The notes under the pieces: generated by a model
What the model saw: only the letters and a program-made list of their open reading frames with translations
What the model was told of the DNA's origin: nothing
Database searches by the model: none
Assembly (NCBI GenBank): GCA_036867785.1
Contig: CP145421.1
Coordinates: forward strand, 1,054,001 to 1,118,000
DNA from: Plasmodiophora brassicae
Taxonomy: Eukaryota
Length of the DNA: 64,000 nucleotides
Direction of reading: 5' to 3'
Shown: in pieces, positions 24,190 through 47,800 of the stretch
How positions within the stretch are numbered: the stretch's first letter is position 1
Layout: the number at the start of each line of letters is the position of its first letter
Program-made: the position numbers and the translations under genes

Positions 24190-26525
24190 GTATTCACCCG
24201 TTGTTCAGGCGGGGAAACGAAGCTGGACGACGCCCGGCGTCGCTCGGAAGCGATGCCGGGTCGACAGCGGGGACCAGTCGCCCGAGCAGCTGATGATTGT
24301 ACGCACTGCGCCGCTCAGCCAAATATGGCGAGCGGCGGCAGTGCGGTGCTCGGCGCGCGATGCGATCGTGTCGCATGGCGCTGGTCGTGATGGAGATTGG
24401 GATGTTGGGTGCCGTGCTGCGGTTCCCGAAGGCCATGGCCACCGACGACTTCATCAACGAGTCCATGCCCGCGAGCGACGCTTTCGAATGATCCGAGAAG
24501 GCGAGGCCGTACTCGGCGCGGGCGCGAACCCAGCAGAATATGAGCAGTCGCTTGCGGGCCAGGGACAAGTGCTTGGTCGCCAGGGCGCCGGTCCGTCCGA
24601 TCGCCATCAGCAGCGACTTGGCCTTCCCCGTCCGGTCCTGGAGCTGGGCATCGTGGGCGAATCACCGCCACGCATACCCATGCCCAGGAACTTGGTCGGG
24701 GACGCCAGGTCGGCCTCGTCTGGGATTTCGTCCCCATTAATCGTGAACGTCGCGCCGCGGCGGTCCCTCGTCACCTGCGACTTCCTCGCGTTAAACACGA
24801 ACCGATGCCGGCGGGCGTACTCCTCGCAGTAGTCCAGCATCCGCTGTGCAACGTCGTCCGACAACGCGTACAGAGACGTGTCGTCGGCGAACATCTGCGC
24901 AGGGACCGGCTGGTCGTACAGCGAGGGTGCAACGCGCCCGAAGACGCGGCACAGCCCGGCCGGCAGGTCGTCGATCTGAATGTTGAACAGGAACGGGGAC
25001 AGCACGGCGCCCTGGAAGACGCCGACCAGCACGTCGATCGCGCTCGACAGCTGCCCGTCCAGCATCACCTGAAACGTGCACCCGTCGAACAGCGACTGGA
25101 CGACAGCGACAACGTGAGCGGGGACGCCGCGCGCCAGCAACTTCTCGTAGACGAGCTGCCGCTCGGTCGTGTCGAACGCCTTCTGGATGTCCAGGAGGAT
25201 CGTCGTGACCGGCTGCTTCAGCCGCCGGTACTTGTCGATCAGCTCGCTGGCGACCCAGATCGCCTCCGGACACCCGATCCCGTCCTGGAACCCGAACTGG
25301 AGGCGGTGCACGCGCAGCCAGTCACGCGACTGCATCAGCCAGACGAGGCAGCGCTCGTACGTCTTCCGCAGGTGCGACTGGAGCGCGATGCCCCGCCAGC
25401 TGCCCGGGTCCATGGAATCGCAGTCCTTCTTCAGCAACGGCTTCATGAAGGCCGACTTCCACGCCGACGGCACCAGCTGAAGCGCGTAGAAGACGACGAA
25501 CATGGCCGAGATCCATTGCGAGGCAGCCTCCGTGTCGCCTTTGAACACGTCGAGCGGCAGGTTGTCCGGGCCGATGCCCTTCATCCAGGCCTGCCGTCCG
25601 ATCGCGCTCGCGACGGCGCCGGGGCTGAACGCGCCGGCCTCTTCTGGGTCCAGGTCGGCGGGACGGCACGGTCGGCGGTAGTCGACTCGATCGGGAGCGT
25701 CGGCGGTGCGGTCGAACACGTCGCGATACTTGTCGGCAAACTGCTCGAGCGACGGGCGCTGCGACGGCCGCAGCTCGGCCGACTGGGCGAACACGCGGCG
25801 CATCTTGGAGAGGAAGAAGCCCAGATCGACCGTCTGCATGGCGCGCCAGTCGACCGGCATGACCCGCGTGTGGCCTCGCCGGGACTGGTCGCGCCGCCAG
25901 CAGGCCCGCCGCTCGACCGTCGTCCGGATCACGTCCATCGAGTAGTCGTACAACGCGTCGATGGCGCCCTGCATGGCCTGGCGGTCGCCGTTGACCAGGT
26001 CGTCGGCGTCGGCGGCCGCCTGCCGCCACATGCTCAGTAGATGGTTGTAGCAGGGGTGGAGCAGCTCGGCCAGCAGGGGACCCGTCTCCTCGTCGGCAAA
26101 CAGCCGGCGACCCCACGACCAGCGCTTGGGGTCGGACAGATCCGGTGGGTCCAGATCGAGTCGCGTCAACAGGAGGCGGTGGCCGGTCGAGTGGGGCGGG
26201 TCCGTGATCGTCAGCGTGGCGTCGACGCCCGCGAGCGAGAAATCGACAATCGATCGCCCGCCGCGTCCGCCCAGGTACGTGTACCGCGTCGGCTCGTAGC
26301 GCAGGTCAGCGTTCAGCAGCTGCAGGGCGTTCGCGCCGGCAAAGTCATGGACGACCTCGCCCCGGGAATCAGACTGGTGGTCACCGGTCAGACGCCCGAG
26401 GTGGGCGTTGAAGTCGCCCGTGACGATGGCGACGTCGTCCTCGCGGACGACCTCGGCGAGCGCCTGCGACAGGCCGGACAGCACACACTCGTACAGCGGC
26501 AGCGGGAACGACTGCGTGCAGTGTG
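24190..26525 (-). mobile_element. LINE copy 2: C-terminal half of an APE endonuclease plus RT; frameshift near 24650, 3' part lost or diverged
   Basis: APE motifs VTGDFNAH, TY...SIVDF, TGHRLL. RT motifs WRGIALQS, QFGFQ, LLDIQKAFDT, GVFQGAVLSPFLFN, MFADD, KFLGM. Similarity resumes in ORF 24194..24607 (TKHLSLARKR..WVRARAEYGL). Confidence 0.9.
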
Positions 26526-28284
26526 GAGGTTTAGGGACTTTTCTAATGAGTAGGGCCGTCTGACAGCTGACAACGCATGACGCAAGAAGAAATCGGCCCA
26601 AAAAAATCGCATTTATGGACCCAGTTTTTTGGGACGTTAAGCCCCTTTGCCGAGCAACGTTGCCGCTTTAGCTTTCGCCCACGCCGGTGGCGGCAGTATG
26701 GGACCTGTGGACGACATCGCGCCTCCGGCCGACGGATGCCGTGTCGGCGTGAATCAGTCGCCGACTCCGTGTTGCGCTGCGACTGACGACGCTGACGATG
26801 CAGCCGATCGCCCACGTCCCCTGCCAATCGCCGACGATCCGACGACCAAGCCGGTGGTCGACGCCGCCCACTACATCGCCGTACACGGCTTCCCGATACG
26901 CCACGATGTTCACCATCGCACCTCGCCGATCGCCGACGACCTGTCGCGACCGCGTGCCCTGCCAGTGTCTGCGCCGTAAGCCGTTGCACCTCGAGGACAG
27001 GTACGAGTCATCGTTTGTTGCACAGTGTCCCAGGCCCTCTGACGCGTTCGACACCGCCCTTATGCAGTCTCATGCCGTCGAGTCGGACCAGGTCCAACAT
27101 GACCCCGGCGTGGTGGCTTCCGACGCTTGGAACAATTGGTCATGCACGCCCCATGCCCGGCACCATGCGTTGATAGCGGGCTAACCAGTCGATGTCGTCG
27201 CCGGCCTCCCTGTCTGCGTGTCGAGCGGTGCCTGCCTGCTGCGTTGTGTTCGTCCTCGCGTCTCTCGAGTCGTCGACGTCCCGAGGCGCCTGCTCGCTGT
27301 TCCTGCGATCGACTGTGACGTAATCGATGCATCCCACTGGACGTATTGCCAACGCGCCCAACACGTCTGGACGACGCCATGCTCCGGTACGGACCGCTGT
27401 CTAATGCAAATGATCACGGCCTCACACGTTCTGCACAGGACACTGCCGTCGCCAGTTACGACGCTGCCGGTCGTCAATGCCGCCCACTACATCGCGATAT
27501 TCGACTAAGTTCGCGTCTGCAGGCTGCGGGTCCCCAACGACCCGTCGTGCTGCTCGCCGTGCTTACGTCCGCGTCGAAGTCACCGCCGAGCACCGACATG
27601 GGCCAACGGGATCACCTGCAACGCGACCATAAGGGGTCCTGCTGGGCTTCTGTGCATCTCCTGGTCAGGAGCGTGTCGTTGCCAAGATGCCCCATCGCCT
27701 GATACGGCTGCCTGCCCTGCTTGCGTCCGCGCCGACGTCGCTGCGACCGGGCCAACACATCGTCTACTAGGACAGCGGAACGTGATCATCTTCCTTAAGC
27801 GCGCCCAATATCTCTGGGTGCGATTCCAGGACAGGTATAGTTTCTCGGCTGATGCGATATGACCTTCGCCTCTGACATGTGATGAACAGGCTAAGCCAGC
27901 TGCCGTGGGACGTCGCTTGTCCATCATGGGAGCCTTCAAGCAGCCGTGGTTCTGCCAAATTGTCATTCTGCTCCACACGTGACGCGGTCGACTGCCCCAC
28001 CCTAGCCGCCGGATGCAATTCGCCGTCTGCCCTGAACCGTCCTGCGATGACGGGCACTGGTGCAAATGCGTCGCCGGCCCCCCATCTGCCTGGTCGGCTG
28101 CCTCTGCCAACTCTGCTGGTTGCCCAGCAGGGTAGCGGTGCCCAGCGCCCGTTGCTGCCGGAAGCCTCGCGGACACCTGACTTTCGACAACGATCGTGCA
28201 GCATCCTTGACGCTATATCCCGATAACCGTGGCCGTTCAATACACGCTGAACATGTTGACATGCGCGTACACCCACACGTGAAG

Positions 28285-28870
28285 AGCGTAACCAAGGAAC
28301 AGTACATTCGTATGTGTGAGACCCGCTGCCCGCAACGGGCGGAGGGTGCCGTGTTGCTCCTCGACGTAAGCGGGCGTTAATACATTTTCAGAATTTCAGT
28401 AAGGTGCAGGTGCCGTACATGTACGAGTTGATGACAATAAGACCAACCGAAGGGGATCGTAGCCAAGGAACAATACTCTCGATCGGATGTCTCAGACCCG
28501 CTATCCGCAACGGGGAGACAGTGCCGAATTGCCCTTCGTCGTAATCGGGAGCGTTAACACACTTTACGAATTTCAATACGGTGCAGAGGCCATCCCTTTA
28601 CAAGTTTACGACAATAAGACAAACCTAAAGGGAAGGTAACCGAGGAACAATACACTCGGAGGTGTGTGGCCCGCTGTCCGCAACGAGGAGAGAGTGCCGA
28701 ATTGCTCCTCGTCGTAACCGGGAGCGTTAACACATTTTAACAATTTCAGCAAGATGCAGGGGCCAAACGTTTACGAGTTCCCGACAAACGTAAAGGGAAC
28801 GTAACCGAGGAACAATACAGTCGGATGTGTGGGACCCGCTGTCCGCAAAGGGTGGAGAGTGCCGAATTTC
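28285..28870. repeat. Tandem array of about 3.5 diverged 165-180 bp units
   Basis: gtaacc(a/g)aggaaca.tac..tcg.atgtgt...gacccgct..ccgcaacg..gagagtgccgaatt recurs at ~28288, 28458, 28636 and 28801. Confidence 0.85.
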
Positions 28871-30182
28871 TCTTCGCGGTTCTTCGGAGGGAAGGTACTC
28901 GACATTAAACGAGGGCAGTCGAGTTCGTACCTACTGATCTAGTTCCATCTCGGTATATGGATTTCCAATGAAGGCTGGCCTCGGCGAAAGTCCAGCAGGG
29001 CGCACCACTCCGTAGTTGCGTCGTCGTCGTCGCCGACGACCCGGCTACGCTGCCTGTCGTCAACGTCGTCCACGACATCGCCGTAAACGGTTCAACGGGT
29101 GTTCTGCGCCGTCGCACATCGCGGGTCGCCGACGACATGTCGTGCCTGCCTGACCTGCTTGCGTCCCCGCCGCCGTCTCCGCCGACCATATCGTCACGGG
29201 CCAAGGCGTCCCCAACGAAGGCAACGCAACCTGCTGCGGCTCAGTACCTCTGGATGATGAATTGTATTCAGAACAGGTAAGTAGTATCGCGTATGACAAG
29301 CAACCATGGGCTGAGACATGTGCTGGACAGGAGACGGCAGCCGTCGATGCCGGGCGGTGCCAGGCGGTCCGACCACCTGCTCCACACCTGGGGCTATCGC
29401 ATGTCGCGTATCCCCGACGACAGGTCCACGCCGACGTCGCCGCCGACCATATCGGCACGTGTAAAACGCATCCCCGGGGAAGGCAATGCAACCTGCTGCT
29501 GGTGTGTCAACGCGCTCAGTACCTCTGGATGAAGTATATCCAGAACAGGTACGCCGTAGCGCGTATGACCAGCGACCATGACCTCTGACATGTGATGGAC
29601 AGGAGACGGCAGCCGTAGCTGTACCGCATCGTCAGGCTTGCGACCACCTGGTCCCACGCCTGAGGCGACGCCTACCCCCTGTCGATCGCTGCGGTTGGTC
29701 GTTCGCGTCCCTGCCATAAACCCGTCATTCCATGTCGGCCACAGCGAGCAAGGGCGCCGCCAGCGCCACCGTCCGCAAGCCCAGCTGCGCATGCCTACGC
29801 TGCTGGTTGCCCAACGTCCATTTCTACCGGCCGCCACGCGAACGCCTGCTATCTGATGACGATCGCCACCATCCCGGCCGGCGTATCGCGGCAACCAGGA
29901 CCGTTCAATACAGGCAGAACCAGTTGTCACGCGTGTACACCGGCCATGCATGGCTTCCTGGCGTCAGCTGGTGCCGACCAGAGCAGGGCGGGACGCCTTC
30001 CGTCCCCAGCGTGTTCATCGACGTTGCGCCCGTCCCTTCATGTCGACGCATATGAAACCCATCCCATGACGTTGCCATGCCTGGTTAGGCCAAGCAATGC
30101 CTACCCTTACAATCGACCATCGACGCTCTCGATGCTGCACCTCAAACAGACCCGTCCCGTGTGTTAAGTTACAAATACAAGT

Positions 30183-33100
30183 TTATGAACGGATACCATT
30201 GCATCTGTAGAAGAGCAGCCTGTAGACGCGCTTGTGGAGCAGGCTAGCCACTTGGGACTCTCCATACCGCACTAGGCGATTGGTGTCGCAGAAGACCCAG
30301 GAACCACCGGGTTGCTTGACCCAGGATATATAATGCCCTTCATCGTGCCCAGCCAATTGGGTGTCACTACCCTGGTAATCGACCAGGCCAACGAGATCGA
30401 AGTACGCTCTGCCAGTCTGAAACGTCACTTCTGGCACCACGTCCTGCCCACAGGAGATATCAGACATCCAAGAGATCCACCCATCATCATCGCTTGATGT
30501 CCTGCACCTACCACCGTGGTCCTACGACGCGCCATGCTGATCTGCGCTCCGTCAGGGCCGGGTTGCTGGACGATCTCCATCGGATCCTGCCGAACAATCA
30601 ACAGTGACCCCGGCGTTGGACTCCTGGCCATGTGGCGGAACGTTGTCGACCGGTGCTCGACATCGTGACCAGGTTGGCAGGGAACGTTGGAGGTGCACCT
30701 CCTGGTGATCGTCTCCGACTGCTCCCCGACCAGAACCGTTGAGAGTTTGACTCGCCGGTGGCAGCCCTGCAGCATGACGACGGGCTGCTGACAAGGCGGG
30801 CGCGACGAGGCATGGCCGCAGGTGGCACACGTATCAACCACGTGTTCGACGAACTCGACGAGACTGCCAACAATCGGCTGTCCATCAGCGCCGACCATAC
30901 GGTATGCCTCCATCTGCGATAGCAGTTCCAGGACGAAGTCGTCTGCGTCGTGCTGATGTCCGGCAGGAAACGACCGTGTCGCCCGGTCGGCGTTGCCCAG
31001 GCTGCTGATGAGCTCAACGAGCGCGTACGACGCCACGTTCGCATCCAGGCGGGGGTTCATCACCTGGTTGAACAGGCCCACCCAGGGCGCGTCGCCCGAC
31101 ACGCGGTGCCATCCAGGCAAACGACGCAGGATATGGACCGGTGCAATGGCGAAGCAAATCTGCCGGCAGACGCCGGCCGCATCCACGTTCGATATGCCCG
31201 CTGGAAGTAGCGTGTCAGCACCACACTCCTGAACGTCAACTTCAGCAGCGTCGATGACAATTGGATCGCGTTTCGTACCTGCGCAGGAGGTTCCGACCCT
31301 TGGGCGGGATCGCTGTGGGCGATTCGTTCGGTGCGGCTCGAACGGTCGACAGCAGGTCGTTCGTGGACCTGCAGTTATTGCACGCATGTCAGCTGTCTCC
31401 CTCGCCACAGTACCGGCGTTGGCAATTGGCAAACCTGTCTGCGCTTCCTCGCTGGGCGTTTCGCGAGGAGAGCCACTTGAACCCTCCTCCGCTTGCAAGT
31501 AAGCTTGGGTGCCTGCAATGTCACGGGGGTTCAGTCTACACCCCGCTCGCAATACCTTCTAACCCAAATCACCCTGTACTCCGACGACCTGGAGGACGAC
31601 TCGCAAACGTCGTTCGTGTCCTGGGACGGTGCGTCGCTGTCGTCGTCGCTCGACATCGGGTCCACATCCATCGTACTCTGTTCAGGCCCACAGTGGATCA
31701 GCAGGATTGCACAATCAAGGCGAATATCATCAGTACACGTACAGTTCGTCGGCACCTGATTGCCGACCGGTTCTGCAGTAGTGCTGCCCGCCGACTGGTT
31801 ACTGTCCTGCGTACGGGGCGGCGCTCGTCACCGGCGTCGTCTCCTGCACCGCCGTCCTCAGATCCGTTGGCACCGGCAACGTCGATGCCGCTTCGCCGCC
31901 TTCGGACGGCGTCCAGGTACATCGGCACAAGCCGGGCAACGAGCGACGCGATCCGCTCAACGACGACATCGTTCTGGCGCCTCGACGTCAGGACGATGAG
32001 TTCGATCGCCACCAGCAAGACGTCGTAGGTGTGCTTCGTCGCGCACCAGACCTCGTTGAGCTTGGCGCCGACAGCGCCGATCAGCATGAGTTCGTGGGCG
32101 AAGTCGTCCCACTCAACCGCGCCTGCGTCCAGCGACCTGAGGACCGCCGACATGTCGACGACGTGGTCATCGCCGTCCCGCTCGTCAGCGTTCCTCTTCT
32201 CACCCACGTACGTCAACACTCGTCGACCGAGGCCGCGCGCATGGAAGATCATAAGGATGATCCTCTGCTGCAGGCCCCACTTGGACAGGTCCACGGGTGA
32301 CGGCCACAGACCAGACACGCTCTTGACGAGTTTGCTGACCTGCGTCGACATCTGCCGGGGCGACTTCGACAGTTCAATCGTGTCGTCGACGCAGGGCCTC
32401 TGAACCAGCACCGCGTTGTGTGGATCGCCCAGGAACCCGTCCCAATCGACCAAGACCGGGGTGCCTTTCCCGTCCTTCCTCGAATGCATCACGCCCATGA
32501 TCAGGGCCATGGCTTCCCACGGCCAATGCCGGCGATGCTTGTTCCCGTGGAAGGCGGACGGCAGCGGCAGCTCCGCCCACGACCCTTGAGCCTGCGCCAG
32601 GGTGACCGACCGCGACGACAGCGGGACCTTGCTGATCTGCAGCGATCCAGCTGACGTCAACGGTACGATCAGGTCGGGATCACAGAGTGGCGGGACCAGC
32701 ATGACGACCTGCTGGAGGATGTTCTTGAACTCGGCGGTAGGCACCCATCGACCCGCCGGACGCTGGCGCAGTGCACGACGCTGGGCCGGGCTGCTGTCGC
32801 CGGACGCCATGAGCATGCGGAGATAGGCGTCGGTGACTCGCTCCGGAGGCGCATCAACAAGGACGACGGGAGGATGTACGACACGGCCATCCCAGCGTAG
32901 ACGCAACGACACGTGAATGACATCACGCCCCAGGGCTCGGCGCCTGCCTTGTACCCTCGTCACCAACGCGCGCATGACGTCGGCCTCTCGGAAACGACTA
33001 AGCGGCACGATGGACATGACGTCACGCCAGAGCGCTACGTGCGGCAGCGTGTCCACGCCGGGCGACATCCAATTGAATGCCACCCACTCGGCGAACGTGA

Positions 33101-36100
33101 TGTGTTGCATCGACGCGACTGAGGGGTCCAGCACGGATCCAGGGCTCGCCAGGCGATGCAGGGCGGCCGGTGACGGAAGGAACGACTTGAACAGATAGTC
33201 GTAGTCCTGGTCCAGGTCTGGGCGATCAAGCGCATGGCTGACGTACGGCGCGAGGACCTTCCTGGACCGCAGCTGGTCGAACGCGTACGCGCCCTCTGTC
33301 TGAAGCAGGTTGAGCGCCACAGCGGCTGGCGTCAACATGTCCGAGAGCATCGACGATAACGTTCGAAACCAGGAGCGGACCAGGTAGGTCAACGCATGCC
33401 GGCACCCCTTAACCGAAATCCGAAGGATCGTCGACATCACGTCGGCGTTGTCGAACCCATGGATAAAGTTCAGGAACTGGCCCTCGTGAATGCGCAGGTT
33501 TAAGGGGTCCATGAAAGCTGGATCGATGAACACCCTGCCGGCCGACATGCAGAAATTGACGTAATCCAGGCGCGTCCCGGGCGACATCCACACGCCGACA
33601 TTGCTGTCAGGGGTACCGCCCTGGAAGAACCGGCTTGCCGAGATGAACGAACCGTCGAGCAGTGCGTTCAGCAGGTCCTCCATGAACTGCAGGCAGTTCA
33701 TCTGCCGCCGATCAATGTTCGTGACGAACGGTGATCGGCGCCCGCCCTCGATGGGTCGGAACATGGCCCGATACATCAGACGGGGGAAGTGGGCGTACTG
33801 CTCATGTTTCCGCAGAAGATGGGCCCAGAAGTCGTGCGCCGCGATGCACAGGATCGTGTCGTCGTCGTTCAGGTGGGCAACTTCGCGCCACATCGACTGG
33901 AACACAGCGCCGCGCATCGACAGGTTTGCGATGTACTCGCAGCGGTGAACGACGGGGACCCTTTCGCGCATCATCTGGCGGCACCATCGTATTCTCTGCG
34001 TCATCGACCTGTGAACCGGCTTGAGGGCTCGCTTCACGTCCGTCTTGCGGATCGGCCCGTACTTCCTCAGAGACCGCGGCAACGAAGCGATGAATTTACG
34101 AGTGTTACCGCGATCGAAAGACGCCCGCACACAGGCGCTGAATGTGGCCAGGTGCGAGTAGCGCACAGGCGCCGCCAGTATTCGTGATCGATCTCTTGTG
34201 CGTTGAGACACTGTCGCATTGTACGCTGATCTCGCTGAAGCCATTGTCGAGCCGCACCGCGTTTTACATCCCCCAAACGCGGCAACCTCACCGATCGGGT
34301 AATAGGAGTGGGATCGCGCAGGAGCGCCGCGGTTGGCGTCTCGGTCGCGTAGAGCGCTGTAGTCGCGACAGACGGCCACAGGTGTCTGATCCGGAAACGG
34401 CTCAGCGGCCACGTTGCTGCCAATGTCAAACCGGCCGCAGTCAACGATCGCGGTCGGCCAGAACGTTCGGAGGTAGTGGCGCTGCTCCAGGATCGAGCCG
34501 ACGTTGTCCATCCTCGTAAATGATCGAACGCCCAACGATTGCATCAGAACCATCGTCGAGTCCTGCAGGTACAATGCCAGTGTGTCCAGCATGGTTCGCG
34601 CGTCTCGCGGCGCGAACCGTACAGGACGCTTGTGGTTGTTGTACTGCTGGCTGTAGTCGACGAGTTCGTCGGGAAGTCGATCAGAGCACGCGGCGATGGC
34701 CTCGCTGACTGCGGCGCGGCAGGAACTGGAGAAGCCGCGTCGTGTCGAGTGACGACTCGTACTCACCAGGAACAACGTGATCGTGGCCATTGGCGAGCAA
34801 TACACTTCACCGAGGAGGAACATGGGAAACTTGGTTATCGGCGTTGGACGCGGTTCGCCTTCCAGCTGCACCCGAAGGTCGTGAAATGTGCTCCCGTTGA
34901 CCGCTTGGCGGCCAGCGTGCCGTCCCCAGGCTGTCATCAAGTGCAGCGACGTGAACGCCGTTGCCCTCTCGAGCGGGAAGACCTGAAGCCATCGCTGGAA
35001 CGACGTACAAATGGCCTGAAGCGAATCGACGTCCATGGTCTGGAGAATGTCGGGCACGCCGCCATGCCTCTCAGACGCTGCGCGTGCCTCGGCTGAAACA
35101 TCGAAGCGGTACTTGCCAGAGAAGCAGTCGGCTTTCGGTAGCCCATGCTGTGTCCAGAACAGGTCACCAGCGAAGTCTTGCAGACTAATCGTCTCAAACG
35201 CGCTGCAGTCAGTATGCGGTTGGCTTCCCCTTGTCAACTGCTTTTCTTCCGATTCAGCCAAGAGGGCGAAGGACGGATCCGCGCCATAAGGGTTACCTAA
35301 CCCGACCTGGCCGTCATCGGACGCAGCAGCATCGTCTTCCGAAGAAACCGTGCCAGATGAGTCCGACGAAGGCGCTCCATCGCGGTCGTCATCACCTTGA
35401 GCGGTGGCCCTCCTTGAATTGTCTTCAGGTACGCGGACGCTGCCACCAGCGTCGTCACCGTCTTCCGCTTCGACATCGACTTCGTCGGCTGCGGCCAGCT
35501 TCTGCCGTTCCCGGATATCGCGAAGATAATCAAACGTTGTTCGCGAGAAGGAGTCGGAACTAACAGCATCATCGTCGCTGTCTCGGTTCGTGTTGCACAG
35601 GCCGACGGGAACCCCGGAAGAGTCACACATCAGTACCATGGGTGCAGGACGCAAAGCGTCACCCATGACCAGGTCGGACGGCAGGACAGGGATCAGATCG
35701 AAGCTGTTCAAGTTGCCTCGATTCGTCTGCAAAGGTAAGACCACGGTCGCCAGCACTGACAACGCCACGACGTGCGGCACGCGACTCGTAAACTCCTGCA
35801 ACACATTCAGCCGTTGGTCTGTTGACAGCATCCGTTAAAGCAATTCATCATCGTACCGTAGACATGCGCCTTTCGGCAAACCGGAGCCCGACAATCTCGC
35901 GACAGTTATCCCGCGAAGTCATGGGATGCACGTGGTCAAACAAGGCGTCCTCGGGAACGGCGAATTCGTCGAACAACGCCCTCTGATGGTTAAAGGGGAC
36001 TGGTTCGTCCAGAATTACATCTAAGACGACGGGATTTGGACACAAGGCGACGGCCGCGACGAAATCAGGCACCCAGAGGCCATTGGCAGTGAAGTGCCGT

Positions 36101-38170
36101 TGGTCCACGATCATGACATTACCATCCTTGTTATTTTCTGCGAGTGCCTGCCGCTGCCATTTGTCCAGCTGGGCCCGGAGGATCGGTGGCGAGGTCTGCA
36201 ATCGGATTTCCAATTCCCTGATGTGGCCTGCGAGGACTTCCCTGTTCGCGGGAACCTTTTGATACCAGCACAAGTACGAAAGCAACCAGGTCGACACGTT
36301 CTCGAAAGATTGCCAGGAAAGATCATGCCAATTCTGGAAAATGTGCCTGACAGACGGGTCAACGGTGATCCCATACGTGTCATTCAATTCCGCCAGTCTG
36401 AGTCGAACAGCGTCGGTGAGCGGCTTAGGAATATCGACGTTCGTACCGGCCCTCCTGCGCCCCACGAACCACAAACGTGGTTCCCAAAGCCACTCCCCCT
36501 CGGAACTAGCGTCATCCGGCGCTTGGCAATCCTGATCGTCATGGGCGTTTCCGCCGGGGTCGTCCGGCTTGGCGCCTGCGTGCATGTCGTCCTCGTCTTG
36601 GTCGTCGAGCTCTGCGTCATCGATTGGGTATAACTCAGATTCGTCCAGATTGTCAAGATCCATCACCGCATCCGTCAAGACTGTTCTGGGGACGTCACCG
36701 CGATGGACGGCTACAGAGAGAAGATTGTTTGGTGTGCAACTCGACGGCTGCATTGAAGGAATATTGTCGTACGCTTGGCGACGAACAGCAGGCAGGAACG
36801 ATACACTATCATCTGAGGAAGATGATGTTCTCGACTCTGATGGAGGCGGACGGACCGGCATCTTAAGCGAATCAGGAGACGTTCGAACAGCGGTGATTGA
36901 CACGAGAGCAACTGCAGACGACGATTCCGGTTGGCACCCTGTCAGTGGGGGCACATCACGAGGCCAAGACGTCGATGCGGTTACGCAATTCATGTTAGGG
37001 TCGTGCGGGTCAAGCGTTATCTTACCTAGTTTGGCGTCACAATATGGAATACAAACAATTATTCCAACACGTAACCAACCATGAGGCGAATCATCAGCTC
37101 CCGTATCGACGGCAACGGTGGCGACTTCTTGAGGTGCTGCTGCAGTGTAGACGGGTGCACCAGAAGGGAGCGGCCCAAGTCCATCGGCGTGTTGCGGCGG
37201 CGCACGTGTCGGCTCAGGCAGCGACAGATCAATGGGCATCAGAGCCGATTCCCCTGCTACAACGTTCATCGAACCACCTAACTCAAAGTAAGAAAGTCAA
37301 CTATCGCGTAATTTGCCGGTCTCGATACCAACCATCACGGTCGTGTTCGTCGTTCACAGCGTCCCCAACGGCGGTCAAAGTCGTACCCGACCCGCCGGTC
37401 GTGTGCGAGTTGACCGCGCTATTGGAATTCGGAGCGCAGTCATCAAACTGGATCGGGGGGACATCATCGAACGCTGGAGACTCGATCGATCGTCGGTCGC
37501 ATTCCGCAGGCCCGTGGTTAAGGTTGCGTTCTTCACGCGGGCAATCGAGCATGTCCTTTCGTGCGATCTCCACTGTCCATCGACGACGATAGAAGCTGAT
37601 ATCGGTACCGGAAAACGTCATGGGCGACGAGTTCGCCAAGTAGTCAGCATACACGATCACGAAGACGACACAGTCGGTCCCATTGCTCTGCTTGGGAAAC
37701 CGACCGGCAGCACGGCGACAGGTCCATTCCGTCTCCCATGGGCGGCCAGTCATGTCCAGATACAAATCCCGCACGTACCGGATGATGTTGCGACCAAACT
37801 CAGTGCGGGGTGGTGTGTGCTGCAGAGAGTCGTACCACTCCACAAGCTTGAGCTTGGGTTGGACAACCATCAGGAACCAATGGTAAGCGTCGCAGATCGG
37901 GACAAATATAAAGTCGTAGTCAAACACGGGCTCGTGGGCGAACCATCTGGCCCACGTCCTCACATTCTCGTAGGCGTACTGGCCGCCCTGCATCATCTTC
38001 GCGTACAGCTGCGAGTCGAGCGCAAAGCACGTCGGGTAACGCCCAGGCATCGCGACTCGACGCGTTTCGTCACGCTGGACGATCAGAGACAGGCATGCCA
38101 TGATAACGGCATCGCTGAGCCAGCATTCGTCTTGTAGGCTCCGGATATCCCCCTAAGCAAAGGCATTCGT
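30183..38170 (-). pseudogene. Giant Ulp1-X-USP gene, copy A: 5' exons lost at the LINE junction, 1-nt frameshift in the USP near 30467
   Basis: Ulp1 motifs WLSD, HWFL, WYDSL, QSNGTDC. In-frame introns 37278-37332, 35796-35856, 31678-31742 and 31229-31278 (plus two more in 31370-31575) link ORFs 37301..38101, 35848..37269, 31698..35831 and the USP. USP motifs GISN..ICFAIAPVHIL, HQHDADDF, GHYISWVK, WVFCD. Confidence 0.8.
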
Positions 38171-38171
38171 G

Positions 38172-40960
38172 GCTTAGGGTTTTAGTCTTGTGTGTATTAG
38201 GCGTAGACCACCCTTTTCCAACCGATGCCGAGCATAATACGATTGCCAGTGTCGTCTTGAGTAGGTAGATGAAGGGTCACATGATAGAAATAGCGCTACG
38301 CAGTGGCCGCCTGTGACGGACTGCGCAGTGCGGGTGGTGCGTGTCGATGCTGGCGGCGCCGATGGTCGTCGTCGCCAGCATGTCGCGATAGGCCTGGTGA
38401 TGGCCTCGTCGGCCGGATGAAAAAACCCATCCGGGCGTCAGACGCTGATCGGATGGGAAAAATCCGGCCGGGCATGAGCGATCGTCACGGTACCCGGATC
38501 CAGATCGGCGGGCGCCGCTCGTACCGCTTGCCGTTGCTGCCCTGGTCGCCGCCGTTGCCGTTGCTGCCCTGATCGTCGCCGTTGCCGTTGCTGCCATCAT
38601 CGTCGCCGTTGCCGTTGCTGCCATCATCGTCGCCGTTGCCGTCCTGGATGCGGAGCTCGACAGGTCCATCTTCGCCGCCGCCGTCCCCATCATCGCCGCC
38701 ATTGTCGTCGCCATTGTCGCCGCCATTGTCGTCGCCGCCATCACGACCCTGTCGCGGCCTGCACAGCTCGTCGATGTCCTTGAGGACAGTCGCGATCGCC
38801 GTCGCCACCGGTCTGGTTCGCTCGTCGAGTCGATACGCCGCCTCTGACGCTTGCTTCCTAGGTCGCCCATCATACGCCGGCGCTTGGATGATCGACGGCC
38901 GTGTCAGCTGGAGCAGGCAGGCGTCGATCGCGTTGTCGGCATCAGTCAACCACTTCAGATGCACCTCCGGGCGATACACATGCTCCAGCCGCTGCTGGGC
39001 GCCGACACAAATCGTACAATGGTATCGATTCGTCTCGTACGCCCCGTTGCAGTTCTGACATGGAGCAGGTATGCCCGGTAGGCGATTCGTCAGCCAGTTG
39101 GCGATCCGGTACGCGTCCGCCGTCGCTTGGAACGCGGTCGCGTGCGGTCTGTTCCACTCCTGCTTCTGGACCCGCATCAGTTTCGCACGCGCCCACGGCC
39201 GCCACGCCCGTTCCTGCAGCGCCTGGACCAGCGCGTCCCCGGGTCCGCCCTCGTTCTTGTCCGCCTCCTCCAATCGGGTGCCGTGCCTGATCTTCCACTC
39301 GCGCAGGTCCCTCACCCGGGCCTGCTGCCGCATCAGCGCCTGCACCCGCGACCAGACCGGGCACTTCTGCACGATCGTCGACAGCCTCGATGCCGGGTTC
39401 GCGAACATGGCCTTGGCGATCTTGCCGCTCATGGTCCTCGGGTACTCGTCGGCCTTCTCCTTCAGGTGGAGCAGGAACCCGCCACGTAGCTGTGCCTGCC
39501 GGATCGCCATCGGGACAATGCCGGCGTAGCGCATCATCAGGATCGACCCGTTGCGGTGGCCGCCGAGGAACTCGGCGCACGTTCGCATGACCCACGAGTC
39601 GATCTCCTTCAGCGTCGAGCTGCTGTGGTTGGCGATGCAGAGGCCGTACTCCAGCTGCGATCGCACGAAGCTCATAAACACCACGCGTTTCTTGCTCACG
39701 TTCAGGTGTTTCGTCTTGAAGCAGCCCGATTGGCTCAGCGCGAATAGCGTCGACCTGGCCTTCGCCGTCCTCGTCCTGAGTTGTGCCGCGTGATCGATCC
39801 GCCCGTTCTTCATGCAGACGCCCAGCAACTTCACGGCGCGATCCTCGCCATCGGCAATGGGTTCACCACCCAGCGTCAGGGTCGGCAGCGGCGGCAGCGC
39901 CGGGTGCTTCGGCACGCTCAGGACGCACTTGTTGACATTGTACCTATAGTGGTATTCGATCGAGTACTTGTGGCACTCGTCGAGCATTGCCTGCATAACC
40001 GCCGGGCGGTCAGCGCGGCAGAACAACGTCTGATCGTCAGCAAACGAGATAATGGGGATGCGAATCTTCACCAGTACTGGGCAGTCGGGGCCAGCAATCG
40101 CCCGGAGCCGTTCGTGCAGCGGGTTGACCAGCAGGTTGAATAGGTCGGGCGCATTGACGACGCCTTGAGCGACACCGATCGCCATTGGTATCGGTTCTTG
40201 TGCACGACCATCGACGAGCAGGACGACCGCGAACACGTCGAAGAGCGACTGCATGTTGGAGACGATGGTCGCCTCAGCTCCTCGGGACTCCAGCTCCCGC
40301 CAGATCAGCTCGCGATCCGCGTTGTCGTACGCCTTCCTGACGTCGAGCAGCGCCGCCATCAGCGGTACACCCTTCCTGGCGTACGTTTCCAGAAGCTCAT
40401 CAGCGACCCAGACGGCTTCGATCGGGCCAATCCGGCGCTGGAATCCCATCTGCAGCTCGTGCACCTGGTAGAGGCCCTTGTCGCGCATCAGCTCTCGAAC
40501 GCCGACTTCGTGCAGTTTTCGAATGTGGCTGGACATGGCCAGTCCTCGCCAGTTGCCCGGATGCCTCCGGTCTTCGCTCTTCTTCGGTATCGGCCTGGTG
40601 TAGCCGCGGTTCCACACCGTCGGCGCGACCTGGTGCGTCCAGCAGATCTCGCTGATGACGCTCAGCAGCTTCGAAGATGCCTCAGGGTGCGCCTTCAGCA
40701 GATCAGCGCACATGTTGTCCGGGCCCATCGCTTTCATCCATCGCGCCCGACGGATGCGACCCTCCACGCACGCCGCGTTGAAGTACTTGAGCTCAGCTTT
40801 GTCGACATCGTCTCGTTTCCTGGCAACGCGTCGCGATCGAGGCGGTTCGTGGCCCTCCGGTGCTGCGTACAGCTGCTGATAGTGCGAGACGTGCTCCTCG
40901 TCCGATGGGGCTTGCTGTTCGATCCCGTTGTTCATCGCTTGCGCCGATGGTAAAGTTTCA
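38172..40960 (-). mobile_element. LINE copy 3, 5'-truncated; open RT ORF with C-terminal CCHC-type knuckle and an acidic repeat tail
   Basis: WRGLAMSS, QMGFQRR, LLDVRKAYDN, GVAQGVVNAPDLFN, SFADD, LLGV; CQNC..YHCTIC. ORF 38485..41007. Confidence 0.92.
38524..38740. repeat. 27-bp (GNGDDDGSN) and 12-bp (DNGG/DNGD) coding tandem repeats in LINE copy 3
   Basis: About 4 x gccgttgccgttgctgccatcatcgtc-like units and 3 x gccattgtcg(t/c)c. Confidence 0.85.
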
Positions 40961-40964
40961 TTAC

Positions 40965-43570
40965 TGTCGTGGTAGGATGGTAGGAGGGTCACAAAAAATG
41001 CGCGCACTGCGCACTTTTGTGACCGCTAAGGCCTATGTACTTAGCCGGGCGGTGCAAGCAAACCGACGCATTGCCAGCTGGGAACGCAGGTAGGCCCGGA
41101 ACGCATCATCCAATTTATTGGGCCGGCTCCACACAACCGCACCCCTTCGAAAACCGGGAGTGTGAGAAGTTGGCCCCCCACTTGTCGACGAATTCGGGCA
41201 ACGACGAGGCGCAATGTTCGCGGTAGCACCGCAGTACTGGCGTCGCGACCTGATTGACGAACGTGCGGGCACGCTCGGTCAGGTCTTTCTTGCTGGCCGG
41301 CAGCGACGCCTCGATGGATAGAAGCAGCACAATCTTCTCCGACGAAGTCGAAAGCTTGGCCAGCTGTGAACGCCCAGGAAGATCGACATTACCGCCTCGC
41401 CTCGCGCGCCCCCGGTTGTCATCGTTCGGATCAGGTTGCGGCAGCGGCGGCGGAGGTGACAATGACGACGCCATCGGCGGTTGGACTGGGGGCGGGGCCG
41501 GTGGCTGCTGGATGGCTGGCTGAGATTCCGAATTGTTGAGTCGTTGGAGAACGACCTGGTTAACCAGCGACATCATCGTCTGTGCCAGCTGGGGCACATG
41601 CGTTTGAAGCAGTTGTTCCAATTGTTGAGACGCCGGCGTCTCAGGGATATCGCGCTCTGCCAGAGAGATGAGCTGCATCAGGGACACGGACGCCGGATCG
41701 ACCCGGAGCTGTGTCGCGACGTACGTCGATGCCAACCCGGGTATCGAGCTCGACTGCGGCGGGCACCTGCTATCGAGAGCGATCCGCCGAGCGTTGCGCA
41801 GGTTCTCCAGGAAGATCGGCTCCCACTTGGGCGTCAACGCCAGCACGTGGCTGTTCGTCCTGCGCGCCCGGGCCAGCAGAGCTTTCGAATCGCGGTAATA
41901 CAATTCCGCGTTCTTGAGCGTCTTGTGGCGCGCCGCTTGCCTGATGTGATCGAGGTCGCCACCACCCCAGATGGCGAACAGGTACGCCGTCTTGCGGATC
42001 GAGTGCGGGCCGTACCGGTGCATCGTGTCGTCGCCGACGACAGGCCTGCAAACACGAACGAACTCGGCGTTGAACTCGTCGTAGGACAATCCATCCGGGA
42101 ACGATTCGAACGAAGCGGCGCCTCGGTCGATCGCGTCAAGGTGTTGCTTCGTGCCGAAGACCAACCCGGACTTGATGCGTGTCCGAGACACCAGCGTGAA
42201 CAACGCCCGGATGGGGCATAGCTTCGGGTGCGAATCAAGCCGGTACAAGACCAGATTGACGGGACCCTCGGCCTTGGCCCTCTCCGACTTGCCGCAGACC
42301 TGCACGACGAGCTGATCGACGCGGTCCAGGTCGTCCTTGGCCGTCATCTCGAGCAAGAAATCTTCAAGCGCGATGTCGACGATCTCGTCGGCCCGCAGGA
42401 ACAGGTGGACGCCCAGCAGGATCGACACCCAGGTGGAATAGTCTCGGAGGGAGCCAGTCGCAACGAGCTGCCGCCTGATCTCCAGCACCTGGTCAGGCAG
42501 CAGAGCGAAGTTACCCTCTGCCTTGTACCCCTGCGTCTCGCGTTTCACCCATTGCTTGGTGTCGACCGCAACTTGACTCAGCACAGGATTGCCGCGCCGC
42601 CACAGACGTGGCTGTCCGACGTGATGAAAGCAGCCGAAAGACTGATTCGATCTCGAGAACGTCGCCCAGCATGTGTCGCAAGAATCATCATGCTGTCCAA
42701 CATGCAGGCCGCAGGCACTCGCTTGACGCGCCGCCTGGAACGCGTCCCAGCAGGCGTTGCACGCGTCTTCAAAGTTGCCACGTTGATCGCGCGCCGCATG
42801 CACCGCCGTAACGGCCGACTCGAACTGCTCCACGTTGCCAGGGCCATTCCACCCGCCTTGGCAGACGACAGGCTGCCCACGCCGATCCAGGACGGGCACG
42901 CCCGAGGCATCGACAAGCGGCGTCCCCTGGACGCCCCTCTTGAACCGAACAAAGTTCGATAAGGTCTTCGCACTCATTGACGGGCAGTGGTCAGATGGCG
43001 CATCGTCCTGCAGGACAAGCAGGCTGTCGTAGTCACCGACCAGGCAACAGTAGTACCTTAGTCCACGTATGTGCTTGCCGTAGGCATGCACCGAGTTCTT
43101 GGCCAGGGGCTTGCTCCCGGTGACAGGGCGGCTCGCTCCTTCCGAGACGCGAAGGCGGCGACGAACCAGGCCCAAACCGACAACGGCGTCCGCCCATAAC
43201 TCGGCGGGGACATGGTACTTGGCCCGGTTGCTGACACGGAACTGGGCCGCTGTGCGCGTTCGTTGCCCTCCAGACGATCGTGATCGACCCATGACGTCGT
43301 CGACAATGCGGTGTGGAAACCTGCGTGGGGATGCGTGCGGCGGTGCGCTTGGTTGTACCGGGAGGGGGTGGCGGCGCCGTCTGGTAGGATCCGTGGGTGC
43401 GGTAGGATCCGTGGTAGGACCCTGGTAGGACCGTTGGTAGGGACGATACACGGCGTATTTTGAGGTAGTATATAGTTATAAATACAGGATGATATGACAG
43501 GTGTATCCCTTGTCTTGGTTACGCAAAAAACTCCTGAGACCTCCCAAAAACAGCCGCGTTGTTTTTTGCT
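40965..43570 (-). mobile_element. Putative Crypton-like DNA transposon (boundaries approximate)
   Basis: The YR ORF is flanked by tggtagga direct motifs (40970-40985 and 43382-43442) and short inverted repeats (ggtcacaaaa..ttttgtgacc 40987-41024; gcaaaaaac..gttttttgc 43523-43569). Confidence 0.6.
41115..43292 (-). CDS. Tyrosine recombinase of Crypton type (intronless; probable start MGRSRSSGG at 43292, ORF open to 43451)
   Basis: Catalytic set R (LFLRADEI), K (GKSER), HxxR (GPHSIRKT), H (ARHKT), Y (AELYYRD). LCPIRAL motif; Cys/His-rich insert; C-terminal helical domain. No linked gag or RNase H, so not DIRS. Confidence 0.88.
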   Translation of the reverse strand: MGRSRSSGGQRTRTAAQFRVSNRAKYHVPAELWADAVVGLGLVRRRLRVSEGASRPVTGSKPLAKNSVHAYGKHIRGLRYYCCLVGDYDSLLVLQDDAPSDHCPSMSAKTLSNFVRFKRGVQGTPLVDASGVPVLDRRGQPVVCQGGWNGPGNVEQFESAVTAVHAARDQRGNFEDACNACWDAFQAARQASACGLHVGQHDDSCDTCWATFSRSNQSFGCFHHVGQPRLWRRGNPVLSQVAVDTKQWVKRETQGYKAEGNFALLPDQVLEIRRQLVATGSLRDYSTWVSILLGVHLFLRADEIVDIALEDFLLEMTAKDDLDRVDQLVVQVCGKSERAKAEGPVNLVLYRLDSHPKLCPIRALFTLVSRTRIKSGLVFGTKQHLDAIDRGAASFESFPDGLSYDEFNAEFVRVCRPVVGDDTMHRYGPHSIRKTAYLFAIWGGGDLDHIRQAARHKTLKNAELYYRDSKALLARARRTNSHVLALTPKWEPIFLENLRNARRIALDSRCPPQSSSIPGLASTYVATQLRVDPASVSLMQLISLAERDIPETPASQQLEQLLQTHVPQLAQTMMSLVNQVVLQRLNNSESQPAIQQPPAPPPVQPPMASSLSPPPPLPQPDPNDDNRGRARRGGNVDLPGRSQLAKLSTSSEKIVLLLSIEASLPASKKDLTERARTFVNQVATPVLRCYREHCASSLPEFVDKWGANFSHSRFSKGCGCVEPAQ

Positions 43571-43699
43571 GGCGGCCCCGGTGGCGTGCGGCGGTGCGGC
43601 GTGCGGTCGCCTGGGCGGATGCGCTATACACCATGGAGCGTGCGCCGTCCTCCGACGCCTCCTACACGAGGTCGCGATGCGCATGCCCGTTGGAGGGCG

Positions 43700-44640
43700 G
43701 TATACGGCACAGACGTGGAGTCCTCTCAACGTGAAGCAGGCGCCGACTCCATGGTGGGCGTCGCCCGCGACTGACTACTCGACGACGCTGCCGGTCGCCA
43801 ACGCCGCCTACTGCATCGTCGTCCACGCCCGCCGGATATGCTGTTGTGTTCAGCCTCGCACGTCGCAGGACGCCGACACCCTGACGCGCCTGTCTGCCGT
43901 GCCTGCACCCGCTGCGACGTCGCCGCAGATGGGCAGCACGGCCCAATGGACTCACGACGACCATATCGCGTCCTGCTGGACGCCTGCCGGCGTGCCCGAT
44001 CTGTCTGTGTGAACGCCCTGCAGTTGCAGCACTGGTACGTGTCGTCGTCTGATGCACAGGCGTGCAGGCCCTCTAACACGCTGGACAGGACGCACCTGCT
44101 GGCTGTCGCCTGCCGTCGTCCGTCCAGCATGAGCACCTGCCGGGTAGCTGTCATCGTGTCTTGGCGGGGCTGGTCCAGCATCGCGCCGGCATGCTCCTCA
44201 GCTGAGGCGGCGCGCTGGACGTTCGCCGATCGTTGCAATCGGTCGCGCGCGCCGCTGTCGTGCACCATGCGTTGATGGCGGACCGAGCAACCAAAGGTCT
44301 TCTCGCCGATGTCCCCGTCGGCCTGTCGAGCGGCACCTGCCTGCCCTGCAGGTCTTCCAGCAGGCAGGTGGCGCCCAGTGCCCGTTGCCGTTGATCGACA
44401 TGCGCACGCCTGTCTGCCGTCGACCACCCGCCGCCGGCGTATCGCCTCACCCAGATCACTACAAGCAGATTAGGTCGACACGCGCGAACGCCGGCCCTGC
44501 AGGTCGTCCTGGCGTCAGGCGGCGCCGGACGGCATCCTTTGCTGAAGTGGCCGGCGGTCGACAGCGCCGACGTCGTCCCTGCATGCGTGTCAAGCATGGC
44601 AGGTCAGACCAGACGAGCGATGCAGGCGTTTCGGGTGTCG
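43700..44640 (-). repeat. Well-preserved copy of the dispersed degenerate ~1 kb unit (possible decayed gene)
   Basis: Shares landmarks (ctgctggacgcc, gatgcacag..aggccctctaac, tccagcatgagcacctgc, ctcctcagctgaggcggc, cctgcaggtc.tccagcagg, caggtcgtcctggcgtcag, ggtcagaccagacgagc) with about 10 other loci. Confidence 0.75.
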
Positions 44641-44875
44641 CAGCATGCACGTGAGGCAGGTGATTGCGCTCGACTCCAAGCAAACGCGGTTCAGTACGTG
44701 TCAGAGCGGTCCTACTTCATTATCCCTGAGTTGTACTGCAGCGTGCGGCCTGGCAAGAAGGCGTGAGGTACAACTTCTCAACAACGCAAACGAATACAAC
44801 GTCTTTTACGGATCATATGTTCCACCATTCTTTCTACTGCATGGCCTGGCAGATGAACTCGACGATGGACAAGCT

Positions 44876-47800
44876 TTATTGCCTTCGCAGTGCGAAGCAC
44901 CTGTAGAACAGGAGTCGGTAGACCCGCTTGCTGAGCAAGTCGGCGACGTGCGCGTCGGAATACCCTTGCACGCGACTGGTGTCGCAGAACGCCCAGCCAC
45001 CACGTGCCTGCTTCACCCAGGACACGTAATGGCCTTCGTCGTGTCCAGCGACGTGGGCATTACCCCAGTGGTCGACAAGGCCGACCAACTGGAAATACGC
45101 ATCTCCAACTTGGAAGACCGCCTGTGGCACCACATCCTGCTCAAAGAAGAAATCAGATATGCCCAGGTTTCCATCCATCATCGTTGTCGGGCCGGCACGT
45201 ACCACCGCTGTCTTGCGCCGCGCCATACTGATGGTCTGACCATCGAGACCTGGCTCCTGGACGATTTCGATGGGATCCTGCCGCACCAGCATCACTTGGC
45301 CTTCCTCGACCTTGCCCTTCAACTGACGAACCGTCGTGCTTCGGTGCTCCACGTCCTGCCCGCGATTGCACGGCCGTTCAGCAGTGCACCTCCTGGCGAT
45401 CGTCGTAGTGTGCTCTAGGAGTAACGCGTCGGCGAGGGACGTTCGGCCGTGCGAACCACCCAGCATAACAACCGGGAGCTCGCAGGGCGGACGCCTAGTG
45501 ACATGGCCGCAGGTCTTGCACGCGTCGACGACATGCTCGACAAAGCCAATGATCGCTCTTTCGATCGGATGACCTAGGGCCCCGACAACCTCGTACGCCT
45601 GCATCTGCTGCAGCAGCTCCAGCGCGAAGTCGTCGGCATCGTGCTGTTGCCCGGGATCGAACGACCTCGTCGCCCGGTCAGCGTCGCTGATGGCCTTGAT
45701 GAGGTCAACCAGGATGTCGGACGCCGCGTTCAGATCCAGACGAGGGTTCATGACCTTATTGTACAGGTCAATCCAGGGCGCGGGGCCGGAGACACGTTCC
45801 CAGCCGGGCAATGACCGCAAGATCTGCACCGGTGCAATCGCGTAGCAAATAGATCGGCAAACGCCTGCCGCATCATTGTTCGATATGCCCGCTGGCAGTA
45901 ACGACCCAGCGTCACGCTCCTAAATGTCAATTTCAGCGCCGACTATGACAATTATGCAGTATACCACACCTGTGAAGGACTTTGTTCTTCTTTCACCGGT
46001 TCGCGGTTGACGCCTTGGGCGGGCCGGCTCGCACGTCCGCCAGGTGTACGTTCGGGTGCCTATGGTCAATGCGAGCGTGTTAGATGTTATCTTCGCCTGA
46101 GTACCGGCGATGTCAGTTTCGAACCAGTTTTGGCGCTGTGAAACGGCGGTTCGCATGTCCAGTCTGTGCCTACAGCAGGCGGACGGTCAGTAACGCAGTC
46201 GAGGCGGGGTACAAGGAATGCCAACCGAAGCAGGCGGCATGGTGCGCGTGTTAGGAGGGTCCTTGATCACAGTCGTCGACGTAACCGGCAGAGGCCTCTG
46301 CAACGTTCCGCCAGTTCAGTCTACATCCCGCTCGCATCACAATATAGCAACTGACCACAGGGCGTGTCGTCGTGCCACACAACTTTCGGCGCTTCGCACC
46401 CTGATGGCTTCGTTTCTTCTGTGGCACACATCCATCGTCAGTCTGCAAACGGCGTCCAACGCTGTCAACCTGGCTTTCGCGCGACGTCGACTGGCACAGC
46501 TCGCTGGTGTCCCTTGACGAGTCATCGCTGTCGTCTTCCGAGCTGGACATCGAGAGGGCGTCTGCAGCGGCCTGTTGGGAACGCAGTCAGTACAGTAATC
46601 CGTGATCAGCAAAGCAGCCAGCGACGAACGATTCGCCTGCGTTTGACTGCTGCGCGGCTCTGCAGGGTAACGGCGCGTCGACTGCTCCTCGTTCGACGCG
46701 TAGGTCCATCGCCGTCGGCAGCAGCGTCGTCGTCAACGGCCTCGTCAGCCTGGTCGGCTCGGTTCCCCCGGCGCTGGCGAATGGCGGCGACGTACGCGCC
46801 CACCATATCGTCGACGATGCCGCGAAACCTCGACGACGTCGCCTCTGCCATCGGCCTTGGTCGTGAGTCCAGGATCACCAGCTCGAAGGCGTTGACGAAA
46901 TAGGCATGTGCGTGCCTCGAGCTCAGGCCGATCTCGACGAGCGTGCGCCCCACAGCGCCGATCAGCGCGAGAGCGTGCTTGTAGGGGCGCCAATCGATGC
47001 GTGCAGCGCCGAACATCTCCAGTAAGTCGTCGACGACGAGGACATGCTCAGCGGGGTCACGAACGGCGTCGTTTCGACCGGCGCCGACATACGTCAGCAC
47101 GCCGGGGCCCAGCGCGCGTGCGTGATACACGAGAATCAGGATTTTTTCCGCCGTCGACCAAGTCGACAGGTCGACGGGAGACGGCCACCTGTCCTTGACG
47201 CCCTTGACAGCGGCGTGCACCTGCGTCGACATTGTCCTGTGGCCCTTGGACAAATGCACGACCGCGTCGACGCCCGCTGCCTGGACTAGCAGGCCGTTGT
47301 GCGGGTCGGCCAGGAACGAGCCCCAGTCGATCTTGGTGCAGGCGCCCCGCGCGTCCGGCGACGAGTGCAGGACGCCCTGGATGAGGGCCAGCGCCTCCCA
47401 TAGCCAGTGCCGCTTCTTGCTCCCCTGGTTTGCCGACGGGAGGGGTACGTCGCGCCAACTCTTGCACGCATCAAACAGCGTGACTGACCGTGGTGCCAGC
47501 GGCAACGTGCTCAGAGTCATCGGGTCAGACGACGCTGGCAGACGCACCACAGCCGATCGATCATGCAATGGCGGGACAATCATGACGACGTGCGCCAATA
47601 CGGCCAGAAAACGCGACGACGGCGCCCAGCGTCCATCGGGGCGAGCACGCATCGCTCGACGCTGAGCGACGGTCTTGGTCGCAGACCCCATCAGATCGGA
47701 CACATACTCATCGGTGATTTCGTCAGGAGGCGGGTCGACCAGGGCGACGAACGGATGGATGACGCGTCCCGACCAGCGGAGCAACAGCGTCACGTGGATG

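Follow-up and report, generated by a model that had tools for sequence, protein, structure and literature searches.

A telomere-oriented element with one fixed end in Plasmodiophora brassicae and the possible Rep_trans-type core of its long protein

The analyzed DNA, hereafter the window, is a stretch of 64,000 nucleotides of the Plasmodiophora brassicae genome (assembly GCA_036867785.1, contig CP145421.1, positions 1,054,001 to 1,118,000 of the forward strand) that lies about 5 kb from the telomere, and its features are collected in Table 1. Two units, A and B, carry the same series of coding regions: a Ulp1 domain, ORF2, a long open reading frame with a central core and a C-terminal half, and a USP/UCH-like protease. 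Unit A is truncated by a LINE at its Ulp1 domain. Ulp1 and UCH were recognized by Pfam (PF00443 for the UCH of unit B, E 3e-7), and the core, ORF2, and the C-terminal half gave no family match in Pfam, PHROGs, or NCBIfam. Elsewhere in the window, a protein kinase ORF (PF00069) was found at 8622-9533 (+), with a copy near 22585-23692, as part of a duplicated subtelomeric block, and a 104-nt inverted repeat (98%) and a near-perfect 55-nt hairpin were located at 21663-22008 and 9552-9606.

The coding regions of unit A are joined by splicing. Three sequencing runs from three studies, whose RNA nature was guessed and in which splicing was seen, contained minus-strand GT-AG joints, five of them in all three runs and two in two runs; none was present in a DNA run. 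With the seven introns removed, the exons form a single continuous reading frame (2,514 codons) in the order Ulp1, ORF2, core, C-terminal half, and USP. Because this frame was assembled from separate contigs, we infer one mRNA spanning Ulp1 to USP. The introns are kept in copies at least 99% identical, all seven within units of 10-13 kb. On the opposite strand, the antisense RNAs of the non-coding tail showed five GT-AG joints, again in 3/3 RNA-like runs and not in the DNA run, and their longest Met-ORFs had 107 and 113 aa. These RNAs are apparently non-coding, and the window contains numerous repeats of related sequence (families D1-D19).

Table 1. Features of the window discussed in the text (positions counted from its first nucleotide).
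Feature	Position	Strand	Basis or remark
Fixed end of related type (…GGGTCTACTCAT), where a non-coding element adjoins another LINE	12962..12990	-
Fixed inner end of unit A, …CTACTCAT	26546..26575	-	8 copies, 8 flanks
TGACAGCTG box in unit A end	26561-26569	outward strand	common to B-type ends
Spliced antisense RNAs in non-coding tail, one contig starting at fixed end	26546..29884	+
USP/UCH-like protease exons, C-terminal part of spliced frame	30182..31552	-	introns; homology to unit B UCH
ORF A, 1377 codons, long central exon (core and conserved C-terminal half)	31698..35831	-	no Pfam match
Candidate nuclease core, copy A residues 205-680	33792..35219	-	invariant in A, B, P0004; ordered-motif test
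Core candidate residues D267/D269, G434-x-R436, R467-F-D469, Y511-P512, G520-G521, Y537-N538, R630-x-E632			invariant in A, B, P0004
ORF2 of unit A, no recognized domain, spliced to core exon	35848..37269	-
Intron between Ulp1 and ORF2 parts of unit A	37278-37332		splice joints
Ulp1/Peptidase_C48 domain, N-terminal part of spliced frame	37301..38152	-	PF02902, E 5e-22
LINE-type RT element, target of B composite at CAT site	38173..40946	-	RVT_1, E 1e-20
Tyrosine-recombinase gene within end of unit B	40947..43482 (gene 41115-43451)	-	PHROG integrase, E 0.004
Unit B: remnant 144-bp repeat, Ulp1 (51581-52633), ORF2 (50634-51542), ORF B, UCH (44876-45919), non-coding tail	43483..53871	-
ORF B, 1336 codons, 50% identical paralog	46606..50616	-	all candidate residues present
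Paralog C, C-terminal half only, without core	58628..60883	-	30% identity

The genome contained 25 matches, headed by ten full-length core matches (four A-type and six B-type), and blocks of 7-13 kb with at least 99% identity are common to units on different chromosome ends. Eight near-identical A-type inner ends have eight different flanks, and 12 B-type inner ends read …TTTACCAT. With the C3 end outside this check, 19 of the 20 ends lie at most 43 kb from a contig end and run from telomere to centromere. Both types carry a TGACA[GC][GC]TG box about 16 nt inside the end. The composite of unit B and the tyrosine-recombinase gene still ends …TTTACCAT, at 40947; this Crypton-like recombinase gene interrupts the final 10 nt of unit B and travels with it on C14, C16R, and C20R. 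Two more LINE ORFs of the window (24607-26667 and 10810-13119) had their 5' parts replaced by element ends of the CTACTCAT type. A further pattern, GNCNTACTCAT, was dropped as too loose, with 140 matches vs 84 in the control and the paired matches lying within a coding repeat.

The joints were then compared with their empty sites. The junction search patterns demanded CAT at the element end, and one B copy ending …TTTACC|GT stands for that reason outside the 23 distinct junctions. Empty sites were recovered for seven of these; one was discarded, as it was the end of another element, and CAT directly preceded the joint in five of the remaining six (background 0.016 per position), the sixth reading TTTACAC. 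The B composite had entered the LINE of the window at …GATGGCAT^CGGC. No target duplication was found at the element joints, which lie at internal CAT sites and not in telomere repeats. Cut-and-paste elements of the DDE type that carry Ulp1 are found among Zisupton/KDZ and MULE and have a DDE/KDZ domain, two ends, and a duplicated target; membership in this group was rejected upon the lack of a family match, the single end, and the lack of duplication. Subtelomeric segmental duplication through microhomology-mediated break-induced replication, with the gene as a host subtelomeric family (e.g., a protease-bearing secreted or chromatin protein), would fit the long blocks common to chromosome ends, the 3-nt homology at the joints, and a gene that is spliced and transcribed. 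However, the same element base was used at 23 distinct junctions, and the two families share the box at equal distance; random template switching is thus disfavored, since it would not fix the donor breakpoint. Besides one metagenomic protein, no homologue of the gene was found in other eukaryotes, and we consider this explanation very unlikely.

No conserved outer end was found in the copies examined. Four copies were cut at four different points, each capped by telomere repeats, other copies were cut by the fixed end of another element, and the outer side of the longest B unit continued into a 144-bp tandem array on the telomere. The element is multi-copy, with one fixed inner end and CAT joints without duplication, and it points away from the telomere. 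A strict rule of end and orientation is contradicted by diverged relatives that are interstitial or inverted (C10, about 100-110 kb; C4, 18 kb; C20, 228 kb; C7, 406 kb; C9, 358 kb). Inverted element clusters were seen on C10 (about 98-111 kb), C6 (about 95 kb), and C4 (about 18 kb), and these are possibly relics of former chromosome ends. A third family was also observed, whose fixed end, …AACCCCTTG, precedes TAA in 13/14 junctions; 6/7 of its empty sites likewise have TAA. Its loci include C7:10696, C15:920113, C16:890480, and C9:1303889, with further ones on C8, C12, and C19; it is devoid of the TGACA box, no long unique ORF was seen in it, and a 169-bp array adjoins the telomere on C16R.

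A fixed 3' end, variable 5' truncation, and telomere-to-centromere polarity are typical of telomeric retroelements in the part of PMC6431247 available, and the same source describes Terminons, HeT-A, and TART with the polarity, the 5' truncation capped by telomere repeats, and the head-to-tail arrays found here. As Penelope-like and LINE reverse transcriptases occupy the same chromosome ends, retrotransposition is the main alternative: the units would be passengers whose unspliced RNA, with CAU at its end, is copied onto chromosome ends by one of these reverse transcriptases, and the protein would be structural or cargo. Such elements encode a reverse transcriptase and finish in poly(A) or in a 3' hammerhead with the telomere complement. 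Unlike Terminons, HeT-A, and TART, the unit has no reverse transcriptase, and neither ribozyme, poly(A), nor telomere repeat stands at its fixed end; an Rfam scan of the ends gave no ribozyme and two chance matches. The neighboring LINE, in contrast, has a telomere-like end and poly(A). This APE-LINE (window 38173-40946; also on C1L, C7L, and C15R) has the 3' end TAAAACCCTAAG, a telomere-like repeat, joined to truncated A/B units, and showed a loose poly(A) end in one RNA-like run; it is a telomere-attaching LINE. The internal CAT targets and the seven introns retained in the units also argue against passengers, although Penelope elements are able to keep introns, and this alternative appears quite unlikely. 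A terminal reverse transcriptase ORF, with an open frame of 699 aa and an upstream ORF, was observed at about 0.4-3.0 kb from the telomere on C15R and 0.3-1.3 kb on C5R; by its motifs it appears Penelope/Athena-like.

Among DNA elements, the ends resemble those of IS91 one-ended rolling-circle transposition. IS91/ISCR, as described in the portion of PMC13181058 available, rely on a single essential end, which lies downstream of the gene, insert at a short fixed word without duplicating it, and vary at the far end, as the element does; IS91 differs in its HUH enzyme, tetranucleotide target, and terIS, whereas here the target is a trinucleotide and neither an HUH motif nor a terminator was found. 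H317 was the single invariant histidine of the core, and no Pfam or NCBIfam family matched. The telomeric Helitrons of Paramecium share very long transposase frames, absolute orientation, satellites, and ORF-less derivatives, and differ in having RepHel, two defined ends, and insertion in telomere repeats (PMC13085455, in part). The element has no Rep, helicase, or Helitron/PIF1 match, one end, and CAT targets within other elements. Such Helitrons support a further alternative, namely that the units are non-autonomous rolling-circle elements mobilized in trans by a RepHel of the genome, where Helitron_like_N matches were indeed found, the best in an open frame of 849 aa. Against this, the nine Helitron matches are interstitial and most have stops, and the Helitron end test gave only weak folds at …CTACTCAT and …TTTACCAT, with neither TC…CTRR nor a strong terminal hairpin; mobilization in trans is highly improbable. 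Bacterial telomeric transposons (PAST, Tn7-like) also have one specific end and the telomere as second boundary, but they use DDE enzymes and two ends bridged by protelomerase or terminal proteins, according to the excerpt consulted (10.1101/2024.11.13.623437). The element thus fails membership of IS91, the Paramecium Helitrons, and the bacterial telomeric transposons, and its membership in PF02486 could not be demonstrated either.

The initial annotation had proposed that six motifs mark a conserved central core, and they lie where it placed them, from DVDSLQAI (35033-35010) to VHRCEY (33950-33933) in copy A and at 49914-48814 in copy B. Its claim that copies A and B are most alike there holds only for the part from RFD to YN. 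Identity is 50% across 1,355 columns and maximal at residues 451-550 (76% and 74% per 50 aa); the DVDS/HDL stretch (residues 251-350) stands at 44-52%, and residues 801-850, outside the proposed core, also reach 72%. Paralog C lacks the N-terminal half, as had been suggested: it aligns to A 679-1323 only, and its N-terminal half was detected in the window neither by tblastn nor by a profile search run without filtering. This paralog is single, and its relatives in the genome are fragments. Core residues 431-650 gave pN 0.24 vs pS 0.71. The 11 assembled chromosome ends supplied 11 copies with a complete core region; the five tested motifs were intact in ten of these, and the copy on C9 was frameshifted.

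The sole full-length database match was the P. brassicae gene model of copy B, which carries the automatic annotation 'cysteine proteinase'. Among 1.84 billion proteins, 14 were matched in a profile search, and only P0004 spans the core (990 aa, metagenomic, JGI/IMG, cluster of one, E 2e-57). Non-conservation among homologues had been named as an argument against a nuclease; P0004, 23% identical, retains the candidate residues (D267, D269, H317, R436, R467, D469, Y511, Y537, N538, R546, R630, and E632). Comparison of the core rests on three independent sequences, A, B, and P0004. Apart from this metagenomic protein, no homologue was found in other eukaryotes, and none in phages, viral contigs, metagenome contigs, or prokaryote genomes; as the contig and genome searches gave no match, the P0004 locus was not recovered. 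A sequence search of 5,623 candidates matched only the gene model of the species itself, two homologue searches of 8,000 candidates each returned nothing and only P0004, respectively, an ESM Atlas search was blank, and the core had no match among PDB sequences. Searches of the literature listed no description of the element or of a eukaryotic Rep_trans transposon, and the available part of a genome paper on the species contains neither 'subtelom' nor 'retro' anywhere (PMC11191646). This is a real and apparently undescribed telomeric element, and Repbase/Dfam or supplementary repeat libraries may hold it unclassified.

Rep_trans enzymes require an N-terminal D (N'), RxD, Y, and RxE, according to the sections seen of PMC5714925 and PMC13107129. 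This D/D/Y/E order is matched by D267/D269, R467-D469, Y537, and R630-E632, none of which varies among A, B, and P0004. The earlier likening of the core to Rep_trans therefore stands as to the conservation and order of RxD, Y, and RxE, and fails as to the full motifs: RxDxAxD lacks its second D and RxYxK its K, with YNAT or YNET in place of YxK, and the R is also missing in P0004. A fifth motif, unused in that annotation, reads IHVLVRVRGCR vs IHVEMTGQGCR and has the right spacing. Motif II (T/SxY/ExG) was unmatched, with negative scores for GCKTRCG and GMAASLP. HH-align against 19 Rep_trans proteins was not significant (E 0.4-0.58, probability <1%); its best segment paired the IHVEMTGQGCR strand with STMVLMQSLGVR and TIHVLVRVRGCR, 30-31 aa before RxD. 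Global HH-align gave nothing, and neither PF02486 nor any other Pfam family matched the core.

A six-block ordered score fell on DVDSLQ, the IHVEMTGQGCR-type strand, RFD, YN, and RCE, and was matched by 0/150 column shuffles in both gap regimes, free and semi-fixed (z 3.6 and 5.1; with free gaps, the best shuffle reached 5.3 vs 5.6 observed), in a test where two spacer limits were loosened post hoc and column shuffles lose periodicity. The C-terminal half and the reversed core scored far lower, the former below the shuffle mean. Taken alone, P0004 scored 20.0 (0/100 shuffles and 0/75 natural negatives as high; M13 gII, 18.8), copy B 8.6 (10/100 shuffles as high), and copy A a noise-like -2.5 (69/100); true Rep_trans proteins score 61-100 (4/19 tested by leaving one out). 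The inner spacings of the core (40, 56, and 12) are within the range of the 19 members, and two spacers of 158 and 95 aa exceed it (54-100 and 16-31), so that the Rep_trans reading requires two large insertions. In Rep_trans, the catalytic tyrosine lies on a strand of a TBP-like fold. Two AlphaFold models of the core had pLDDT of 46 and 33, too low for use, and in both Y537 is in a helix (pLDDT about 25-30 there). Foldseek with these models gave no match at E<=0.001 (PDB twice, BFVD once), and the VIA structure search gave a best Z of 7.2, from generic helices. The proposed nuclease core is thus backed by conserved residues, rolling-circle-like ends, and the extra motif, and a fold match was not obtained; nor did a confident non-nuclease fold appear with models of this quality.

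The core shares the order D, GxR strand, RxD, Y, and RxE with Rep_trans/MOB_T (PF02486; RepC/RepD/RepSTK1), Phage_CRI (M13 gII), and the archaeal Rep-Arvir (DUF7845), and its tetrad would be equivalent to D46, D142, Y191, and E214 of RepDE, as given in part of PMC13107129. In that text, Rep-Arvir likewise departs from YxK, and the Rep_trans family is reported solely for bacteria and archaea. Unlike Rep_trans, the core has no profile match, YxK lysine, or motif II, contains two long insertions, and is fused to Ulp1 and USP in a eukaryotic, intron-bearing, chromosomal gene. Collectively, the protein with the core is probably the element's own mobilizing enzyme (putative). Our favored explanation, suggested by sequence motifs and given nearly, but not quite, an even chance, takes the core for the putative catalytic part of a transposase and for a far-diverged tyrosine nicking enzyme of the Rep_trans type (TBP-fold, non-HUH). 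The element might instead be self-mobile, one-ended, and CAT-specific through an enzyme of another fold, with a chance likeness to Rep_trans. The DNA-end evidence is independent of fold, and HH-align was not significant; moreover, the C-terminal half, with 90/460 invariant columns against the distant P0004 (59/476 in the core), is by this sequence measure no less conserved and might itself contain the enzyme. Yet only the core shows the ordered D, GxR, RxD, Y, and RxE pattern, and paralog C, without core, is single with fragmentary relatives; we hold this explanation to be unlikely.

If the core is a Rep_trans-type nickase, the enzyme would bind the TGACA box near the fixed end, and Y537 would nick the outward (G-rich) strand at ATG, with D267/269, D469, and E632 as metal ligands. 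The nicked 5' end would be joined to a 3'-OH at an ATG of a different chromosome, and synthesis by the host would displace the strand out to the telomere. The chromosome end would act as terminator, the distal segment of the recipient being replaced. With run-off at the telomere, no terminator would be needed, insertions would be tolerated only close to chromosome ends and in a single orientation, and nested arrays would be built as each element truncates the previous one. One-ended transfer running off the telomere would explain the fixed end, the absent second end, the strict orientation, and the nested arrays. The Ulp1 and USP proteases may act at the site by removing SUMO and ubiquitin; in the part of PMC6431247 available, cysteine proteases accompany Helentron RepHel proteins.

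We tentatively propose, with somewhat less confidence than an even chance, a novel class of DNA transposon in eukaryotes, in which a Rep_trans-fold nickase fused to SUMO/ubiquitin proteases drives one-ended rolling-circle transfer, uses the telomere as terminator, and swaps a whole chromosome end at CAT in each event; non-coding families ending in TAA or CAT would be moved by a reaction of this kind. The rolling-circle transposons described so far from eukaryotes rely, to our knowledge, on HUH enzymes. A eukaryotic transposase with a Rep_trans fold would, if true, be a new transposon class, and the automatic annotation 'cysteine proteinase' masks a probable transposase. Even with another fold, the data point to an enzyme-like, sequence-fixed turnover of chromosome ends, which accounts for the nested subtelomeres of this organism.
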